Below, one piece after another: positions 13,222 through 64,000 of a DNA stretch of 64,000 nt; position 1 is the first letter of the stretch, and each line of letters opens with the position of its first letter. The notes under the pieces were generated by a model that made no database searches, was not told the origin of the DNA, and saw only the letters and a program-made list of their open reading frames with translations. The translations under genes and the position numbers were made by a program. This DNA is from Salinispira sp. (lineage in GTDB: Bacteria > Spirochaetota > Spirochaetia > DSM-27196 > Salinispiraceae), in contig CBDDDG010000018.1 of assembly GCA_965226555.1 (NCBI GenBank), positions 42,548-106,547 of the forward strand, read 5' to 3'.

Positions 13222-14039
13222 AAAATCGTTTCCCTGTCGCCGGCAAATCCGTAAAATCCAGAAAATCCGGCGCAGCGGGCACGCGGAGCCTTCTCGAAAT
13301 AGTGAAAAAGCGTTTTCCCATGAGAACGGGCACGGAGCTGTATGCGCACATTCTCTATGGAGATGTTTTCGTTAATGGTCATCGGGAACGTAATCTCTCG
13401 GCTCGAATATCTCCCAATGCCGAAATTACCATAGCGCCGCCCGAAAAAAATTATGTCAGCAGAGGCGGACATAAACTGGCATCGGTTCTCCACAGGGCTG
13501 AGAATGCGGGCTTCTGTTATCGCAACAGGGTTCTTCTCGATGCCGGAGCCTCAAGCGGCGGTTTTACCGATTGCCTTCTGCAGCACGGAGCTCAGACAGT
13601 TCACACTGTTGATGTCGGATATAATCAACTTGATTATCGGCTCCGCTGCGACTCCCGGGTTCAGGTTCATGAGCGATGTAATATAATGTCGATTTCGCGG
13701 GAGGATATGCAGCCCTGTCCTGAATGTGCTGTTGCTGATATCTCATTCCGCACCCTGAGCGGTGTTGTTCCTCATATCCTCACAATTCTCTGCTCGGAAA
13801 ATCCGCTCCTGCTCGCTCTTATAAAGCCTCAATTTGAACTGGAATACAGCGATATACCCGTAGCGGATTTTTCGGGGGTCTTAAGGGATAGCAGTATTAT
13901 CGAAGGGGTTCTTGATGATCTCATAGGCCGACTTACCGAAGAGGGGGTACGGGTGCGCGGAATCTGGCCATCCGGCCTGCGGGGAAAAAAGGGAAACCAG
14001 GAATTTTTTGGTCTCTTCGGCGCGCAGAATACTCAGTGA
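13218..14039 (+). CDS. tlyA: TlyA family rRNA methyltransferase/haemolysin
   Basis: S4-like N-terminus, YVSRGGHKL, DAGASSGGFTD, LIKPQFE, GNQEF. Confidence 0.92.
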   Translation: MKNRFPVAGKSVKSRKSGAAGTRSLLEIVKKRFPMRTGTELYAHILYGDVFVNGHRERNLSARISPNAEITIAPPEKNYVSRGGHKLASVLHRAENAGFCYRNRVLLDAGASSGGFTDCLLQHGAQTVHTVDVGYNQLDYRLRCDSRVQVHERCNIMSISREDMQPCPECAVADISFRTLSGVVPHILTILCSENPLLLALIKPQFELEYSDIPVADFSGVLRDSSIIEGVLDDLIGRLTEEGVRVRGIWPSGLRGKKGNQEFFGLFGAQNTQ

Positions 14040-14107
14040 AATTTTTGCTACTGGAAATTGTGCAAGCACAATTTTCCAATGCAAAATTTTCAGCAGTGAA
14101 ATCTCTA

Positions 14108-17812: not shown

Positions 17813-18331
17813 TTATCGCTGTGTGAAAAGTACCAGTATGGTAATCATAACCGGGAATATGAGAGCAAGTAACCAGAATATGTGCCGAATTGATTTCGTT
17901 ATATCTTCCCGCAGTACCTGAATATTTTCCTTTGTTTCTTCCCGCAGTACCTGAATATTTTCCTTTGTTTCTTCCCGCAGCGCCTGAATATCGTGCTTTG
18001 TTTCTTCCCGCAAGGCCTGCATATCGTGTCGCAGTACCTGCGCATCGGTTTGCAGTTTTTCCGTATCTTTTTTTAGGAGCTGAATATCCTGCTTCATATC
18101 TTTTTTTAGGAGCTGAATATCCTGCTTCATATCTTTTTTTAGGAGCTGAATATCGTTTTTTAGGAGCTGAATATCTTGCTTCATATCGTTTTTTAGGAGC
18201 TGAATATCTTGCTTCGTTACGAGTTCGTCGTTTTGCTGCGCAATGACCTTTGCCAGCACATCCGACTGCTGAAGAGAGAAACCATTTTTCTGCAATGTTT
18301 TTGATGCGAGTAGTGTGTCAATCATGGTCAT
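17813..18331 (-). CDS. DUF1640/Bdr-like coiled-coil repeat protein with C-terminal TM (probable leaderless start at 18325)
   Basis: LVTKQDI motif, (KQDIQLLKKDM)n and (REETKENIQVL)n 33-bp repeats, C-terminal hydrophobic helix. Confidence 0.8.
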   Translation of the reverse strand: MTMIDTLLASKTLQKNGFSLQQSDVLAKVIAQQNDELVTKQDIQLLKNDMKQDIQLLKNDIQLLKKDMKQDIQLLKKDMKQDIQLLKKDTEKLQTDAQVLRHDMQALREETKHDIQALREETKENIQVLREETKENIQVLREDITKSIRHIFWLLALIFPVMITILVLFTQR

Positions 18332-18360
18332 AATATACGAAAATTACGGGGCATTGTCAA
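18332..18360 (-). promoter_or_regulatory. Sigma70 promoter of the DUF1640-like gene
   Basis: TTGACA-17 bp-TATATT on the minus strand. Confidence 0.7.
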
Positions 18361-18469: not shown

Positions 18470-18660
18470 TATATGCTGATTCTGAGTTCATGTATCTTTT
18501 CAGGGGAAAGTTTTATCGCTGCAACCACCTCGGACTCTTTCATTCCAAGCCGGAGCATATTACAAGCTGCTTCCGCAAGTCTTCATCGCCTGTCTTACTG
18601 ACTTTCCGCATAATATAGCACAGGGCTCCCCCTGTCAACACAACCCCGTCTGACCCGACG
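18470..18660 (-). pseudogene. Rpn nuclease fragment
   Basis: 18575-18656 is near-identical (reverse complement) to about 46500-46587 (GSDGVVLTGGALCYIMRKVSKTGDEDLRK), fused to an Rpn-like tail NMLRLGMKESEVVAAIKLS. Confidence 0.7.
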
Positions 18661-18763
18661 GGTTACATATGAATGGTGAATGATAAAATGAGAAAGTTTT
18701 TGAAAAAGTTTCTATTATTTTGGGATATTACTGTTGGACCTGACCCCGGCGCGGGGATCGCTG

Positions 18764-18940: not shown

Positions 18941-19656
18941 ACGTTTTACCTCCTCAGGATGTTCCTGCCGGCTGCAGGCCGAGCAACGTCAATTAATGCG
19001 ATCCGTTCCGCAATGCCCGCATTTCCTCATCGCTCAGCCCGGTAATCCTCTGAACAGCCTCTGTCGACAACCCTTCCAAAAACATACTGCGGGCGTTTTT
19101 TCTCCGCTCCTCAATATGCCCCTCCGCGCGACCTGCCTGTAGCCCCTTTTGAAGTCCTTCTTCACGACCTGTCTGCAGTCCTTCCTGTCGACCTGTTTGC
19201 AATCCTTCTTCACGACCTGTTCGCAGTCCTGTCTGCAGTCCTTCCTGCCGACCTGTCTGCAGTCCTTCTTCACGACCTGTTCGCAGTCCTTCCTGTCGTC
19301 CTGTCTGAAGTCCTTCCTGCCGACCCATTTCCGCAATGCGCGCTTTGAATGTTTCCGCATTCATTCTGAACATTTTTGCTACCTCCTTACCTCTCGGTTC
19401 TTTTGTTCTTTCTAATCTGTTCATTAACGTATCTAAATCTATAACAATTCCGAACATCGAATCTACCACGCCGACAAATTCCTCTATCAGCTCCAGCGAT
19501 TCCTCATTCAGCATTTCTGCTATCGCTTTCTCCACCTTCTGAATGTCCCAATCCGTATTCAACAGATTTTTCGAGTACAGATCAAGGTACATAACAGCCG
19601 CAAACATTCTTCCCCGCTGCTGCAACTGCTCCGCAGAATAATCGTTCTCACTAATA

Positions 19657-21009: not shown

Positions 21010-21135
21010 CCGAAAATTTTGCTCCGCAAAATTTTCCAATAAGATTCTCCCATCTATATATTTGATTCTCTCAAGATATAGAAAGTTTTGCTACTGGAAA
21101 TTGTGCTTGCACAATTTTCCAAGGCAAAACTTTGT
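21010..21135. mobile_element. Double-hairpin MITE with nested inner palindrome, TA-flanked
   Basis: Absent from intact paralog; TA on both sides; the same unit recurs at 24683, 24860, 25058 and 40583. Confidence 0.85.
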
Positions 21136-21829
21136 TAGGGAAAGGGAGCAAGATACTGCGGGAATTCCCGCGTGTTCTGCTCTCTGACATTCCCGGGCAC
21201 CTTCCATTTTCTCGTGCCATTATAGAACACAATGGGCAGAAATACCAACTCGCAGTCATCGGGAATTTCGCCAGTGCGGTGAATGTTCCGATAGAGCAGA
21301 TTCGTATACTCCGACATGCGGAGGGGCATGTCTTTGTCCACTCCAGATTGATGCTCAAGGAGCACATAGATAGCAACATCTCCCGTGTGATCCCGACTTC
21401 TGATTTTGCAGACAATGTCGGCCATTCGTGTTTTCGCATGGTCGATAAAAAAGGTACCGTTTTCAATGGTTATATCCTCGATTCGCAATTTTTTCGTCCA
21501 TGCGCCTCCGACAAAGCGTTGCAGAAATTGGAGCATTATTGCGGGTTGGAACAGCAGGGAGCGGTATCCTTGGTCGTAGGGAACGGGGGCGGGTTTTTCT
21601 TTGAAATCGATCATATAATTCCTCCTGAACGAAAGTTTTGCTACTGGAAATTGTGCTTGCACAATTTTCCAATGCAAAAGTTTCTGAACGTTTCTTTCTG
21701 AATAGGGGAGCTCCCATGGCGACATGGTCCCATGGTGAATTCTCCCTTATATATCTATAACGGGTAAAATGTCATTCTTGACTATGTATTTTGAAAGAAT
21801 TTGAAAAAAGTTTTGATACTGAATAGAAC

Positions 21830-23644: not shown

Positions 23645-23797
23645 ATAATTCCTCCTGAACGAAACTTTTGCTACTGGAAATTGTGCTTGCACAATTTTCC
23701 AATGCAAAAATTTCTGAATAGGGGAGCTCCCATGGCGACATGGTCCCATGGTGAATTCTCCCTTATATATCTATAACGGGTAAAATGTCATTCTTGA

Positions 23798-24568: not shown

Positions 24569-24799
24569 CTGAAACTTTTGCATTGGAAAATTGTGCAGAG
24601 CACAATTTCCAGTAGCAAAAGTTTCACATTTGGCAGGCCTCGTTGCGCTTGGCATTCTCTCATTTTGTAGAAAGTTTTGCCACTGAAAAATTGTGCTCTG
24701 CACAATTTTTCAATGAGGATTCTCTCATCTATACTCTTGATTCTCTCACGGTATAGAAAGTTTTGCCTCAGGCAAAACTTTGTTGTGGCAAAACTTTGT
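24569..24799. mobile_element. Compound nested MITE
   Basis: Outer element carries an inner palindrome in one hairpin loop and a full ~100-bp unit (24683-24783) in the other. Confidence 0.8.
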
Positions 24800-30585: not shown

Positions 30586-30742
30586 TTTACTCTCCTAAAA
30601 AAGTTAGTTTTGATACGATGTTTCAGGGAAACATCAATATACATTTCCCACATCATTTTTACTAAATTATACCACAGTTTTGCATTGATCAAGTGTTGCC
30701 TTGGAAAATTGTGCAAGCACAATTTCCAGTAGCAAAGGTTTC

Positions 30743-45962: not shown

Positions 45963-47018
45963 ATGAGTAATGCCGGATACAATATCCATGATATTGCGTT
46001 TAAGAGTATCTATGGCACCCCCGAGGCGGCAGCCGATATTCCACGGATAATTTTTCCAAAGGACATCGTTAACATTATGGATCTAGATGCTATTCGCATT
46101 GAAAACACCATCTACATTGACAAAGGGCGTGAGGTACTCTGCGACCTCATTCTCATTATTCCCCTCAAAGGGGAATTCGACGGTTTACGAATTGTCCTGA
46201 TCATTGAGCACAAAAGCACATTTGATCCAAGGGTCAGAGAACAGTTTGATAAATACCAGAGAGCCCTCATAAACAGCAGGACATTTCAGGCGCAGACCGA
46301 TCTTCTTGTTCTGGTGCTGTGGTACCATGGAGAACCGATATGGGATGGCGATCTCAGTTTCCACAGTTCAGGGGATGTGCATACACACATACCGGAAAAA
46401 TTGTACACAATGATGGAAAAATACCTTGCGAGGCCAAAGGTTCTCAATAGGCCTGTGATGGTCGATGTGAATAGGATGAGCGAGGAGGAGTTTACCCGGG
46501 GGTCAGACGGGGTTGTGTTGACAGGGGGAGCTCTGTGCTATATTATGCGGAAAGTCAGTAAGACAGGCGATGAAGACTTGCGGAAGGTTGCGAAGTATCT
46601 GAAAGAACTTCCCGCAGAGAATTCCCGAGAGATGATCCCGAACCTTCTGCTCTATCTGAAGGCCTTGAAACTGGATACACGCTTTGAAAAAATCAACAGG
46701 GAAATAAATCCCGAAGGAGAAGAAGTTATGATGAAAAAAGTCCAGATGAGCGATTGGTTTGTCAACCAAGGCATGGAGAAAGGCATTCTGAAAGGACGGG
46801 TTGAAGGTCTTGAGCAGGGAATGGAGAAAGGTCTTGCAAAAGGAATGGAGCGAGGAATGGAGAGAGGCAAGGTTGAAGGTCTTGAGCTGGGAATGGCGAG
46901 AGGCATTCGAGAAACTGCCCGCAGTATGTTTTCGGAAGGCTTGTCAACTGAGGCTGTTCAGAGGATTACCGGGCTGAGCGATGAGGAAATGCGGACAGTG
47001 CGGAACGGATCGCATTAA
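45963..47018 (+). CDS. Rpn-family PD-(D/E)XK nuclease type C, intact
   Basis: HDIAFK, CDLI, IIEHKS, LWYHG, GMEKG repeats, ITGLSDEEM tail. Confidence 0.9.
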   Translation: MSNAGYNIHDIAFKSIYGTPEAAADIPRIIFPKDIVNIMDLDAIRIENTIYIDKGREVLCDLILIIPLKGEFDGLRIVLIIEHKSTFDPRVREQFDKYQRALINSRTFQAQTDLLVLVLWYHGEPIWDGDLSFHSSGDVHTHIPEKLYTMMEKYLARPKVLNRPVMVDVNRMSEEEFTRGSDGVVLTGGALCYIMRKVSKTGDEDLRKVAKYLKELPAENSREMIPNLLLYLKALKLDTRFEKINREINPEGEEVMMKKVQMSDWFVNQGMEKGILKGRVEGLEQGMEKGLAKGMERGMERGKVEGLELGMARGIRETARSMFSEGLSTEAVQRITGLSDEEMRTVRNGSH

Positions 47019-47435: not shown

Positions 47436-50240
47436 TTACGGACGCGCCTTCGTCGTCATGTTGTAGGCATAGATTTTATCATCAGAATCATCTGCCACCC
47501 GCATGGTCGTCCCATTCGACCAGATACCATAGGGATTATTGTTCCCCGCAGCAGAAAGGGTCGTAAAGTCCTTTGCACTGTCTCGCTCCTTCGTCGTCAT
47601 GTTGTAGGCATAGATTTCATCATCAGAATCATCTGCCACCCACATGGTCGTCCCATTCGACCAAATACCTGTGGGATTACGGTTCCCCGCGGCAGAAAGA
47701 GTCGTAAAGTCCTTTGCACTGTCTCGCGCTTTCGTCGTCATGTTGTAAGCATAGATTTTATAATCAGAATCATCTGCCACCCACATGGTCGTCCCATCCG
47801 ACCAAATACCTGTGGGAGAAGTGTTCCCCGCAGCAGAAAGGGTCGTAAAGTCCTTTGCACTGTCTCGCGCCTTCGTCGTCATGGTGTAGGCATAGATTTT
47901 ATCAGCATAATAATATGACTTCGCCACCCACATGGTCGTCCCATCCGACCAAATACCTGTGGGATTATAGTTCCCCGCAGCAATGAGGGTCGTAAAGTCC
48001 TTTGCACTGTCTCGCGCCTTTGTCGTCATGTTGTAGGCATAGATTTTATAATCAGAATCATCTGCCACCCACATGGTCGTCCCATTCGACCAAATACCTG
48101 TGGGAGAAGTGTTCCCCGCGGCAGAAAGGGTCGTAAAGTCAAAATCAAAAATCTGTACCGTTTTCGTTAAATTGTTTGCACTGTCGTCTATTGTCAGTGT
48201 TATGCTTTCTTCCGAAAACCCCCCTATGGTTACCACGCCCCCGAACTGAGGAATATTTTTCCTACTGTCTTCTTCGGGAAAGTCAGAATATGCAGTGTAT
48301 TCAATGGTAAATGCGTTAGAAGGCACAACAGTAAACTCAATGTCGGGCTCCTTCGGCTTTTTCCCAAACTCCCCATAGTAAATGTTAAGGGATATTTCTG
48401 AATTCTTATTCGAATTCAGTTCAACATTGTCTGCTAATCCATCTGGAAGAGAATAACTGTCATTAAGACGGATCCCATGTAAAGGTGAACGGAGACCAGA
48501 TACATTGACCTGCTGCGATATTACTCCATCACTGTCAGTGTTCTGATTTCCCTGAATCGAGATGTTCACCTCGGAACTATATGTTCCCGCTCGCGGGGTC
48601 AGATAGCTGAGATTGTAAAAACTGTTGGCATAGCCTTCTATTACGTCTTGAATTGAGCGAAAAGCAGTTGTCAGTTCTTCAAAACTGTCTATGGCATACT
48701 GTCCGGCGTTTCCCAGTGATTTAAGAATACTAATGTGATCATCGCTGGGGCTGACACTTATTGTTATGACTCTCTTGTTTCCTCGCGTATTCAGGGCAGC
48801 ATTCAGTGTTGACGATCCCTTAGTATCTTCTCCATCGGTGAGAATAACAAGCTGCCCCCCCTGCCGAATAGCATTTTGCGAAAAGACGTTTCCCAATTGG
48901 GAAACTCCTGTTGACACCGCCCCATAGAGATCGGTTGATCCAGAACCAAGGGTAATGCTATCAATTGCCGCATGAAGTTCTGAAACAGACGATGAAAAGT
49001 CAATAATCTTGTTCGCGGACGATGCAAATGTCCAGACAGCAAATTCAGCAGTTCCCGTGCTGTCGCTGTTACCCGATACCTCCGATTCGCTAATGAGTAC
49101 CTTTGCCGCTTCTTTAACCGACGGCAAATCAGCGCCAATACTCAAACTGTTATCGAGCATAATTACTGTGCTCAGCTTGTATGGAAGTTCATCGGCTTTT
49201 CGTATGCGTATTGCCGATTCTGTTTCCGATACCGCGCTTCCCGATTCACGGATAATAAAATCAGATTCCTCCAGATCAGTAACCGGAACCCCGTCGACAG
49301 TTTCAACCGACATAAAAATATTGATATACGCAGGGTACAATGTGCTTGTGTTGTAATGATAGAGAATATAACTATCATCAGGCGGCGGCGGCGGCGGCGG
49401 GTTGCTATCATCAGGCGGCGAAACTCCGCCGTTTTCATTAGGATAGGCATAGATTTTTCCGTTATACCCATTTGCCACCCACATTGTCGTCCCATTCGAC
49501 CAGATACCGTGGGGAGAAGTGTTCCCCGCAGCAGAAAGAGTGTTGGTGTTAAAGTCCTTTGAACTGTCTCGCGCTTTCGTCGTCATGTTGTAGGCATAGA
49601 TTTTTCCGTTATACACATCTGCCACCCACATTGTCGTCCCATTCGACCAAATACCTGTGGGAGAAGTATTCCCCGCAGCAGAAAGGGTGTTAAAGTCCTT
49701 TGAACTGTCTCGCGCTTTCGTCGTCATGTTGTAGGCATAGATTTTACGAGTAGAATAATCTACCACCCACATTGTCGTCCCATTCGACCAGATACCTGTG
49801 GGAGAAGTGTTCCCCGCAGCAGAAAGGGTGTTGGTGTTAAAGTCCTTTGAACTGTCTCGCGCTTTCGTCGTCATGTTGTAGGCATAGATTTTACGAGTAG
49901 AATAATCTGCCGCCCACATTGTCGTCTTATTCGACCAGATACCTGTGGGAGAAGTGTTCCCCGCAGCAGAAAGGGTGGTGCTAAAGTCCTTTGAACTGTC
50001 TCGCGCCTTCGTCGTCATGTTGTAGGCATAGATTTTTCCGTTATACCAATCTGCCACCCACATTGTCGTCCCATTCGACCAGATACCGTGGGGAGAAGTG
50101 TTCCCCGCAGCAATAAGAGTATCGAAATCCTTTGTTGGGTCGTATTCAGAAGCCGTGTCCGTGTCCATGTCCATGTCCATCGGACACCCTACTAACATAG
50201 TTATCGCTACAGCAACTAATAATGGCATTAACTTTTTCAT
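47436..50240 (-). CDS. Surface lipoprotein: 5 propeller-type repeats, vWA domain, 5 propeller-type repeats
   Basis: SD AAGGAGGT, MKK..LVGC lipobox, ~47-aa repeat GIWSNGTTMWVAD..KIYAY, MIDAS DNSLS..T..LTDG. Confidence 0.85.
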   Translation of the reverse strand: MKKLMPLLVAVAITMLVGCPMDMDMDTDTASEYDPTKDFDTLIAAGNTSPHGIWSNGTTMWVADWYNGKIYAYNMTTKARDSSKDFSTTLSAAGNTSPTGIWSNKTTMWAADYSTRKIYAYNMTTKARDSSKDFNTNTLSAAGNTSPTGIWSNGTTMWVVDYSTRKIYAYNMTTKARDSSKDFNTLSAAGNTSPTGIWSNGTTMWVADVYNGKIYAYNMTTKARDSSKDFNTNTLSAAGNTSPHGIWSNGTTMWVANGYNGKIYAYPNENGGVSPPDDSNPPPPPPPDDSYILYHYNTSTLYPAYINIFMSVETVDGVPVTDLEESDFIIRESGSAVSETESAIRIRKADELPYKLSTVIMLDNSLSIGADLPSVKEAAKVLISESEVSGNSDSTGTAEFAVWTFASSANKIIDFSSSVSELHAAIDSITLGSGSTDLYGAVSTGVSQLGNVFSQNAIRQGGQLVILTDGEDTKGSSTLNAALNTRGNKRVITISVSPSDDHISILKSLGNAGQYAIDSFEELTTAFRSIQDVIEGYANSFYNLSYLTPRAGTYSSEVNISIQGNQNTDSDGVISQQVNVSGLRSPLHGIRLNDSYSLPDGLADNVELNSNKNSEISLNIYYGEFGKKPKEPDIEFTVVPSNAFTIEYTAYSDFPEEDSRKNIPQFGGVVTIGGFSEESITLTIDDSANNLTKTVQIFDFDFTTLSAAGNTSPTGIWSNGTTMWVADDSDYKIYAYNMTTKARDSAKDFTTLIAAGNYNPTGIWSDGTTMWVAKSYYYADKIYAYTMTTKARDSAKDFTTLSAAGNTSPTGIWSDGTTMWVADDSDYKIYAYNMTTKARDSAKDFTTLSAAGNRNPTGIWSNGTTMWVADDSDDEIYAYNMTTKERDSAKDFTTLSAAGNNNPYGIWSNGTTMRVADDSDDKIYAYNMTTKARP

Positions 50241-50472
50241 AAAGTTAACCTCCTTAATTTTGTATAGAAATTCCCATGGGGAATTTCTGGACATTCACCG
50301 GTGGTGTTAAAGTTTTTCAGTGGATTGGCATGCGAGATAACGGATTGGAGTTTCAGGCGCTGCTCGGGAGTGTTAGGGCAGATCGGTTCATAGAGGGGAG
50401 ATGTTAGAGCTGTTGCGGAGTTTACACCCGGTACGAGGGAAGTGAGCTGGGATAATGTGAGAAAAATATTTT

Positions 50473-50610: not shown

Positions 50611-50640
50611 AATATAATATGAGAATATTGACCGTGTCAA
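50611..50640 (-). promoter_or_regulatory. Sigma70 promoter upstream of leader ORF and vWA lipoprotein
   Basis: TTGACA-18 bp-TATATT on the minus strand. Confidence 0.65.
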
Positions 50641-50659
50641 CAAGTTTTTTCAAATTTTT

Positions 50660-51911
50660 TGGGATATTAAGGTTTGAACAGACCCCACTTTGACCTATTA
50701 TGCGATCATTTCTTCCGAGTGCCAAGCCCTCCATCGCTCAAGCGTCGGCCGTGTGAGCCGTTGCTCCATTATGATCGGCTTGAGCCGGAGAATATCACTA
50801 TCCACATTGGTATTCCGTTGCCTCAAAAGATCCAGCGGAGTCCCTTTGCGGTAGGTGTTGAACCGCCGGTAATTGAAATCTATCTGATACTCCTCGGCTT
50901 CCTTAAGAAACTCATTGAGCTTTGGATTCATCACCTGACTGTAGAACTCATCCTCAATGAGCCGGTGCGAGGACTCGACAGAACTGTTCCATGTGCAATG
51001 CCCGGGCGGAATACGCCGATACTCGACACCCGCCTGTATGAGCGCCTGCTCAAACCCCGACGTTCGGGTCTTGCTCAGATGCCGAACGGTGAACTCTGCC
51101 CCGTTATCGGTCTGAACCGTTATGCCGTTGACAAGGTCTCCGCCGCGATTCCGCAGGTGCTCCAGCAGGTACTCGGCGAACAAGGTTGTTACCATACTGC
51201 TCTTCTCATTGGCGAAGGCGTACCACAGAGCCCCTGTCGCCCGATCCCGGGCGGTTATCTGGTACTTCGGAACGTCTAAACACTTCTGAGAAAACCGCAT
51301 AGCGGGAATGTCCGTCAGATACTTGATATCAATCTGAATGCACTCGCCGAACTTCATCCTGTCGGTTACCTCCCGCAAATCTCTCTTGGGCCGCGCCTTC
51401 GGCTTCTTTGTTTTCCGCGCCCCTATCTGCTTTAGCGTCTTGATAATTGTCGGCAGGCTGTACTTCCCGCCAACTTCCGTCTGCAACTGCTTTTGCACCT
51501 GCGTTCCAATGATTTTGTTGTGATTCCGAGCCTTGGTCTGGGCAAGACTCTCGAGATGACACCAGTGCCCGAATTTCATCTTCATCGGATGATTGGTCGT
51601 GCCCCGCTTTTTGTCTTCAAGACCCTCGCCGGATTCAAAGCGCCGAACCCACCTCCGCACCGTGTTGCGCGACACCTCGAACTCCCGAGCAGCCGCCTTG
51701 ATCGAATGCTCTTGGGCATACCGAACCATCCGCAACCGCCACTCATACATCGAAGCCGCCTGATACTTCCGAGACTTGAGATGATACTGAGAATATGTGA
51801 TACTACTGTTCACTGTTTCCCTCCTTTTATGTTTTATACAACCCCCAGTGTGTACGAATAACCTTCGTTTTACACTGGGGAGGAGGGGTCAGCTCAAAGG
51901 TTTATATCCCA
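50660..51911 (-). mobile_element. IS481-like insertion sequence, 1252 bp, 15-bp TSD
   Basis: Imperfect 27-bp IRs TGGGATATTAAGGTTTGAACAGACCCC / TGGGATATAAACCTTTGAGCTGACCCC; TTTTTTCAAATTTTT at 50645-50659 and 51912-51926. Confidence 0.9.
50698..51813 (-). CDS. IS481-like integrase-core (rve) DDE transposase
   Basis: N-terminal HTH, IQIDIKY, VQTDNGAEF, NSSVESSHR..DEFY. Confidence 0.9.
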   Translation of the reverse strand: MNSSITYSQYHLKSRKYQAASMYEWRLRMVRYAQEHSIKAAAREFEVSRNTVRRWVRRFESGEGLEDKKRGTTNHPMKMKFGHWCHLESLAQTKARNHNKIIGTQVQKQLQTEVGGKYSLPTIIKTLKQIGARKTKKPKARPKRDLREVTDRMKFGECIQIDIKYLTDIPAMRFSQKCLDVPKYQITARDRATGALWYAFANEKSSMVTTLFAEYLLEHLRNRGGDLVNGITVQTDNGAEFTVRHLSKTRTSGFEQALIQAGVEYRRIPPGHCTWNSSVESSHRLIEDEFYSQVMNPKLNEFLKEAEEYQIDFNYRRFNTYRKGTPLDLLRQRNTNVDSDILRLKPIIMEQRLTRPTLERWRAWHSEEMIA

Positions 51912-51932
51912 TTTTTTCAAATTTTTCTTGTA

Positions 51933-58656: not shown

Positions 58657-58696
58657 TATAGGTCAAAATGGGGTCAGATCAAAGGTTTATATCTCA
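58657..58696 (+). mobile_element. Solo downstream end of the IS481-like element
   Basis: Reverse complement TGAGATATAAACCTTTGATCTGACCCCATTTTGACCTAT matches the IS end. Confidence 0.8.
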
Positions 58697-58699
58697 GGG

Positions 58700-58816
58700 A
58701 AAAGAGAAAAATTGCTTGACACAAACGAATTTTTTGATGATACTGGATCACAGTGAAGCTTAAAAAACGCTATTTACGCGATGTAGTGGGAAATACGCGT
58801 GTTTCCAGAGCTTCCC
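58700..58816 (+). promoter_or_regulatory. Promoter plus structured leader, copy 1
   Basis: TTGACA(58716)-17 bp-GATACT; highly similar to inverted copy 63633-63750. Confidence 0.8.
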
Positions 58817-63632: not shown

Positions 63633-63750
63633 GGGAAGCTCTGGAAACACGGGTATTTCCCACTGCATAGCGGAAATAGCGTTTTTTTAAGCCCCACTGT
63701 GATCTAGTATCATCCAAAAATTCGTTTGTGTCAAGCACTTTTTCTCTTTT
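63633..63750 (-). promoter_or_regulatory. Promoter plus structured leader, copy 2 (inverted)
   Basis: TTGACA(63734)-17 bp-GATACT on the minus strand. Confidence 0.8.
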
Positions 63751-63753
63751 GTG

Positions 63754-64000
63754 TGGGATATAAACCTTTGAGCTGACCCCTCCTCCCCAGTGTAAAACGA
63801 AGGTTATTCGTACACACTGGGGGTTGTATAAAACATAAAAGGAGGGAAACAGTGAACAGTAGTATCACATATTCTCAGTATCATCTCAAGTCTCGGAAGT
63901 ATCAGGCGGCTTCGATGTATGAGTGGCGGTTGCGGATGGTTCGGTATGCCCAAGAGCATTCGATCAAGGCGGCTGCTCGGGAGTTCGAGGTGTCGCGCAA
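63754..64000 (+). mobile_element. Second copy of the IS481-like element (partial; transposase starts at GTG 63852)
   Basis: Matches the reverse complement of 51911-51665. Confidence 0.95.

Follow-up and report, generated by a model that had tools for sequence, protein, structure and literature searches.

Promoter-anchored insertion by an IS481-like element of Salinispira sp. and its relatives in distant phyla

Introduction

The bacterial elements TnGBS, ISLre2 and ISKra4 are known to insert upstream of promoters at a constant distance. According to the available portion of PMC3942029, a sigmaA -35 box lies 15-17 bp downstream of these insertions, a fixed-distance habit for which Brochet 2009 is cited there; contact of the transposase with the RNA polymerase initiation complex was proposed, and the analogy with Ty3 was already drawn. 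They are Mutator/IS256-like, generate 8-9-bp duplications and carry a terminal C. The asymmetry of their ends sets the orientation of insertion, and symmetric ends lead to both orientations. The element described here resembles them in its fixed distance upstream of sigma70 -35 boxes, but is IS481/integrase-like, with 15-bp duplications, TG ends and a distance of 19 bp. A preliminary description of its locus knew of no account of the habit for a bacterial IS; these three cases are such accounts.

In the IS481 family, duplications range from 2 to 15 bp, and those of 15 bp are treated as unexplained in the available portion of PMC10045372. The members with 15-bp duplications (ISCbe2, ISMac4, ISA0963-1 and the eukaryotic IS481EU) share a single HTH with a DDE domain, TG..CA ends and the duplication length with our element; promoter targeting by them is unreported in that paper from its introduction to its conclusions. 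The ISTde1 subgroup of IS1202 also has a related DDE fold and 15-17-bp duplications, and ISAba32 and ISAjo2, of its sister subgroup, insert at a fixed distance from XerC sites, for which contact with a host protein was proposed (bioRxiv 10.1101/2022.12.17.520857; PMC10132070). The available portions of these two papers report Xer-site targeting only, and not promoter targeting. In a search of the openly accessible literature, no IS481-like element was described as targeting promoters.

Here we report that promoter-anchored insertion by an IS481-like element is a real and well-supported pattern, convergent with the cases above, and from it we infer a mechanism.

Results

Structure and classification of the element

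The analysed stretch of DNA (the window) comprised 64,000 nt of contig CBDDDG010000018.1 of Salinispira sp. (GCA_965226555.1), positions 42,548-106,547 of the forward strand. Comparison of the genome copies defined a complete element with the following parts.

50660..51911, minus strand: IS481-like insertion sequence, complete, 1,252 bp, ends TGGG..CCCA
51885..51911, minus strand: left terminal inverted repeat, 22/27 identity with the right repeat
50660..50686, plus strand: right terminal inverted repeat, facing the promoter
50645..50659, no strand: 15-bp target-site duplication, promoter-side copy, identical to 51912-51926
51912..51926, no strand: 15-bp target-site duplication, distal copy
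50698..51813, minus strand: transposase, 371 aa, sole ORF of the element, N-terminal HTH and RNase H fold

The genome, whose RpoD matches place the host among the spirochaetes, contained 17 full-length copies with identities of 97-100%. The duplication was 15 bp in ten of them and 16 bp in one, while six had none or a short match.

The transposase matched HTH_28 and rve_3 in Pfam. Residues D162, D236 and E280 were invariant in an alignment with 104 relatives, and a helical insertion followed the first catalytic Asp (D162). The predicted structure (pLDDT 90) resembled IstA, retroviral integrases and TnsB. The best NCBIfam family was NF033577 (IS481) with 112.9 bits, and the transposases of five relatives gave 95-147 bits; as the score lies below the cut-off of 224, the element was filed as IS481-like. 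The duplication of 15-16 bp reaches the upper limit of the IS481 range, 15 bp falling within the 2-15 bp given in the available portion of PMC10045372. ISCbe2, for which the supplement of that paper gives a 15-bp duplication, was the closest catalogued element by eye, sharing the insertion after the first Asp and a motif after the catalytic Glu. The element differs from the 15-bp IS481 members in its score of 113 bits against NF033577 (cut-off 224) and in its TGG rather than TGT ends: the termini are TG..CA with G as the third base, where TGT is typical of the family, and the right end begins with AG in some relatives.

Two other assignments were rejected. Membership in IS1202 was excluded by a score of 20 bits against NF033594 (cut-off 250), by the smaller enzyme (371 aa against 394-507 aa) and by a quick tree of 36 proteins, in which our clade had an SH-aLRT of 99 and the IS1202 elements formed a separate clade, the order of the deep fork being unclear. 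The ISTde1 subgroup also differs in having the -35 at the duplication edge instead of 4 bp away. Membership in p-MULT (ISLre2/TnGBS/ISKra4) was excluded because the element lacks a Mutator-like transposase, a terminal C and an 8-9-bp duplication.

Distance to promoters in the window and genome

Three further ends of the element were located in the window, and each of the four sites faced a promoter.

63754..64000, plus strand: left end of another copy, 247 bp, 100% identical, cut by the contig end
18381..18430, plus strand: decayed solo right end, about 50 bp, older variant of the element
58658..58696, minus strand: decayed solo right end, about 39 bp
50635..50640, minus strand: host -35 TTGACA, 4 bp beyond the duplication, 19 bp from end 50660
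50611..50616, minus strand: host -10 TATATT, spacer 18
18332..18360, minus strand: host promoter TTGACA-17-TATATT (-35 at 18355-60, -10 at 18332-37), -35 20 bp from end 18381
58716..58744, plus strand: host promoter TTGACA-17-GATACT (-35 at 58716-21), 19 bp from end 58696
63706..63734, minus strand: host promoter TTGACA-17-GATACT, paralogous to that at 58716 (-35 at 63729-34), 19 bp from end 63754

Rechecking of the coordinates reproduced the four distances of the preliminary description (20, 19, 19 and 19 bp) and its -10 boxes at spacers of 17-18. The GATACT of the two paralogous promoters (58716 and 63729) is weaker than the TATATT at 18332 and 50611. The distance of 19 bp at 50660 consists of the 15-bp target duplication plus 4 bp. 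The end at 63754, which had been considered a possible remnant, is instead the truncated left end listed above. The four sites were also not the full tally, as degenerate end-like sequences with 5-6 mismatches in 27 occur at 18721, 22221, 24236 and 39671. These belong to an approximately 95-bp repeat with 24 copies genome-wide and one shared A/T-rich flank, and a -35-like hexamer at 18-20 bp was found in only 1/24. The rule itself exceeded chance: a -35-like hexamer 19-20 bp from an end, combined with a -10 at spacer 16-18, was present in 9 of the 11 duplication-flanked copies of the genome, compared with 1.15% of non-coding and 0.84% of genomic positions (30,000 of each). The same promoter test was passed by 3/6 copies without duplication, and 16/37 solo ends had a -35-like hexamer at 18-20 bp. 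Gene sparing, another early claim, also held: only 1/11 reconstructed empty sites lay inside an ORF, compared with 334/400 random sites. The copy at C10:127151 was within an ORF and lacked a promoter.

The next long ORF on the strand of the -35 at 50635-40 encodes a VWA-domain protein (47436-50294), starting 346 bp from this -35. At 18325-18337, an in-frame ATG lies 7 bases past the -10 of the 18355 promoter, which suggests that ORF 17813-18331 may have a leaderless transcript from this promoter. Several repeats were noted in the same region and elsewhere. The repeat copy at 18721 is just downstream of a short Rpn-like gene; Rpn/YhgA-like genes at 18993-19625 and 45963-47018 comprise one full-length and one short C-terminal form, with short motifs repeated. 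An 87-bp segment at 18570-18656 has 12 copies with 93-100% identity and carries a promoter of the TTGACA-17-TATATT type on the minus strand. A REP-/MITE-like palindromic repeat of about 55 bp gave several hundred BLAST matches genome-wide (both strands counted) and often adjoins IS ends; in the window it occurs at 14038-14090, 21081-21134, 21631-21683, 23661-23713, 24572-24625 and 30696-30742.

Ownership of the targeted promoters

The promoter-plus-leader family to which 58716 and 63729 belong has 21 paralogs, of which 17 lack an IS end and four have one at 19 bp. An IS-free paralog on contig C21 has an upstream 15-mer identical to that of the occupied 63754 site, and flanks were unrelated among the insertion loci. 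The targeted promoters belong to the host, as had been supposed at the outset, because the duplication lies between the element and the -35, the flanks are unrelated and IS-free paralogs exist. The opposite possibility, promoters carried as part of the element, was ruled out by this separation of the end from the -35 and by the empty paralogs. The two homologous promoters had also been described as looking independently hit. This is likely rather than proven, as the ends at 58696 and 63754 differ in type, age and flank.

Relatives in other genomes and metagenomes

Relatives were collected at 80 metagenome and 79 genome loci, and 118 of the 159 had usable ends; loci with an end score below 12 or a flank shorter than 60 bp were dropped, and ends were set by copy comparison and a profile. 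Named hosts included Spirochaetia, Treponema (Spirochaetota), Cloacimonadota, Acidobacteriota and Verrucomicrobiota. Among 226 junctions including our own, TTGAC stood 40 times at offset 19, five times at 18 and ten times at 20, with three or fewer at any other offset; related elements are not independent, and such pooled counts, as well as those on orientation, overstate significance. The early claim of a fixed distance upstream of the -35 was thereby borne out by copies, solo ends and relatives. Outside our genome, a -35-like hexamer at 18-20 was present in 70/192 junctions, compared with a mean of 7.8 and a maximum of 16 for other three-offset windows, and 19 of 44 transposase clusters (70% identity) contributed to this signal.

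Of 49 elements flanked by a duplication, 39 had a -35-like hexamer precisely 4 bp past it, some of them at G+C-rich targets of Acidobacteriota and Verrucomicrobiota, and the other ten had none at that position. The 39 cases comprised 32 with 15-bp, three with 14-bp and four with 16-bp duplications; calls permitted one mismatch, and a few of 14 or 16 bp may be off by one. The constancy of this position for all three lengths indicates that the promoter-side edge of the duplication is the fixed one.

In a held-out set of newly searched genomes, TTGAC was found at 18-19 in 11/46 junctions, with two or fewer at any other offset, and a -35-like hexamer in 5/8 duplication-flanked elements; the end-score cut-off was 10 here, and many Cloacimonadota ends fell below it. 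A Cloacimonadota element with six copies (G757) had the motif at only 1/6 loci. One more left-end junction, which has TTGCAA at 19, came from a contig of another sample (run X4). One relative (L021) was flanked by a 29-bp imperfect palindromic duplication containing the -35 at 19 bp.

Relatives were sparsely distributed. A search with a single protein found none in 40 genomes of the same family/order, and an alignment search gave a match in 1/300 other genomes of the phylum of G343 and in 4/400 of our own phylum. The viral contigs searched contained no relative, and the plasmids searched contained only distant IS481 proteins with 25% identity. Contigs of four sequencing runs compared with the locus had no joint across the element, and searching the same number of runs with the right end gained no further junction.

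Sequence features of the targets

The 14 bases of the duplication held almost no sequence information, the -35 columns held most and the -10 columns were weaker; a sequence-specific 15-bp target was ruled out on this basis. TAnnnT at spacer 16-18 was present on 30/49 promoter sides and on 4/49 opposite sides, with a peak at spacer 17 (19 cases). Within the same flanks, TAnnnT followed 36/58 on-target hexamers and 20/200 off-target ones. When sites were oriented by the -10 alone, the better -35 was chosen in 27/30. In addition, at 5/54 loci scanned the targeted -35 was followed at 39-59 bp by the start of a tRNA gene. A -10 at the right spacing and tRNA genes downstream point to whole promoters as the targets, and hence probably to the holoenzyme; judged from these sequences, the co-occurring -10 favours guidance by sigma70 holoenzyme over reading of naked DNA.

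The Cloacimonadota targets differed in this respect. Their junctions displayed a sharp peak of TTGAC at 18-19 (15/53), and TAnnnT was mostly missing, with 0/5 among their held-out duplication-flanked hits. TTGACA-N16-18-TAnnnT occurred 213 times in our own genome against 75 for reversed-pattern controls, and 62/52, 29/26 and 185/196 times (pattern/control) in three Cloacimonadota genomes (G342, G851 and G757); spacers of 22-24 were used as a further control. One of the targets without a -10 precedes a tRNA gene. These counts hint at a non-standard -10 element in the phylum, and since the pattern is not enriched there, the targets may follow the promoter grammar of their own host. The missing enrichment softens the objection that these targets raise to the holoenzyme, without removing it.

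Orientation and stacking

The preliminary description had stated that either end can face the promoter, and among the 11 duplication-flanked copies of our genome the right end did so in six and the left in five. For the 91 elements with both ends, the left end faced the promoter 24:1 when the right end began with AG (one both, 13 none), a ratio inflated by kinship, and 21:15 when it began with TG (three both, 13 none). The choice of the promoter-proximal end likely depends on the symmetry of the ends, and this bias parallels the end-asymmetry rule of TnGBS, ISLre2 and ISKra4 in the available portion of PMC3942029. In G851, head-to-tail copies were found with one duplication between them; as the duplication regenerates the target, repeated hits would stack in this manner.

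Controls and other lineages with long duplications

Other IS481/IS3-like elements of the same phylum had TTGAC at 18-20 in 0/66 junctions; in four of these control groups (G255, G226, G134 and G154) the end calls were uncertain and duplications were not found. Elements with 7-bp duplications were promoter-anchored in 0/6 cases. A 1,036-bp IS481-like lineage (L213, L214 and L246-L252) with a 15-bp duplication and a 303-aa transposase (28% identity over 173 aa) had a -35 and a -10 at 18-19 in 8/9 resolved loci, 12 having been tried in very AT-rich hosts.

Two lineages were anchored at other offsets. IS1202-family elements with 16-17-bp duplications had the -35 at the duplication edge in 5/6, an offset of 0 bp. 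TTGACA directly at this edge was seen at loci L258, L261, L276, L277 and L286, and also at L259, L265 and L275. The G056 element (L222-L228; 1,367 bp, TGT ends, 18-bp duplications) encodes a 406-aa transposase that scores between the IS1202 and IS481 models and below both cut-offs. It had a -35 and a -10 at 39-40 bp from the end in 5/7 copies, an offset of ~21-22 bp or about two helical turns past the duplication.

Discussion

The 15-bp duplication of the IS481-like element ends 4 bp upstream of a host sigma70-type -35. Considering the observed geometry, its conservation across phyla, the host-owned promoters and the co-occurring -10, we regard it as likely, with a probability of about 0.6, that this arises by docking of the transposase complex on promoter-bound holoenzyme, probably near sigma region 4. 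The docking point of the transpososome would be the upstream edge of the -35 box, and the holoenzyme would set the register of insertion. By DDE geometry, the promoter-proximal cut would presumably fall on the template strand at about -40. Its position would be constant and that of the distal cut would vary by one base, giving 14-16-bp duplications. The cut would span about -40 to -54, and at our locus we take the promoter-side duplication (50645..50659) to cover this stretch, the UP-element zone, which is normally used by alpha-CTD and activators. Because the duplication would recreate this stretch, the core promoter would be kept intact together with most of the UP zone, and far-upstream control sites would be displaced. 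Modelling of transposase residues 12-365 in complex with sigma70 region 4 (510-595) gave a score of 0.00, which speaks neither for nor against a contact.

In the preliminary description, insertion was guided either by the -35 hexamer or by promoter-bound polymerase; our data tilt towards the latter (-10 in 30/49 versus 4/49). On direct reading, the transposase itself would recognise a TTGAC-like motif lying 4 bp beyond the target that it cleaves, and promoters would be hit for carrying this motif. The -35 columns indeed far exceed the -10 columns in information, a transposase bound to the target could reach the motif, and Cloacimonadota targets have a -35 without TAnnnT. We nevertheless consider such reading unlikely, as the 20 targets with weaker -35 boxes keep a correctly spaced TAnnnT in 13 cases, where matched hexamers from the AT-rich non-coding DNA of our own genome reach 10-11%. 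Perfect TTGACA is moreover commoner there in coding than in non-coding DNA (1,030 versus 361), yet 10/11 targets were outside ORFs, a disparity that selection explains in part, and the related lineages stay promoter-anchored at offsets of 0 and ~21-22 bp.

Polymerase might also act without being touched, by bending or exposing the DNA upstream of the -35 and blocking that downstream, so that the first accessible, bent 15 bp are captured. This would account for the dependence on the -10 and, with no need for a conserved protein interface, for activity in different phyla, and the duplication falls in the A/T-rich UP region; the single-base precision at +4 in 39/49, G+C-rich targets included, and the lineage-specific offsets within one phylum are more easily understood by a specific contact, making capture of this kind quite improbable in our estimation. 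Least probable by far is random insertion followed by purifying selection that leaves only the copies upstream of promoters. Only surviving insertions are visible and 10/11 were intergenic, but selection cannot yield a one-base peak (TTGAC at 19 in 40/226, three or fewer outside 18-20), and neither the control IS481/IS3-like elements of the same phylum nor those with 7-bp duplications displayed anchoring. Docking on the holoenzyme thus remains our preferred reading.

We tentatively suggest, at somewhat less than even odds, that the long-duplication branches of IS481/IS1202 form a class of sigma70-holoenzyme-tethered transposons, each with its own -35 offset (0, 4 and ~21-22 bp for duplications of 16-17, 15 and 18 bp). 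If this is true, long duplications would reflect a transpososome built on polymerase-bound upstream DNA, and the class would parallel Ty3/TFIIIB tethering with an integrase fold, independently of the Mutator-like cases.

Among the integrase-like IS481 elements, promoter-anchored insertion had an origin of its own, and it works across distant phyla with one 371-aa enzyme and no targeting subunit. For TnGBS, tethering of the transposase to the initiation complex had been proposed; an element this small, with a single gene, makes that proposal testable. In uncultured phyla, such elements also pinpoint host promoters to the base. They would cut far-upstream regulation from many genes with the core promoter kept, and they could serve as gene-sparing insertion tools.
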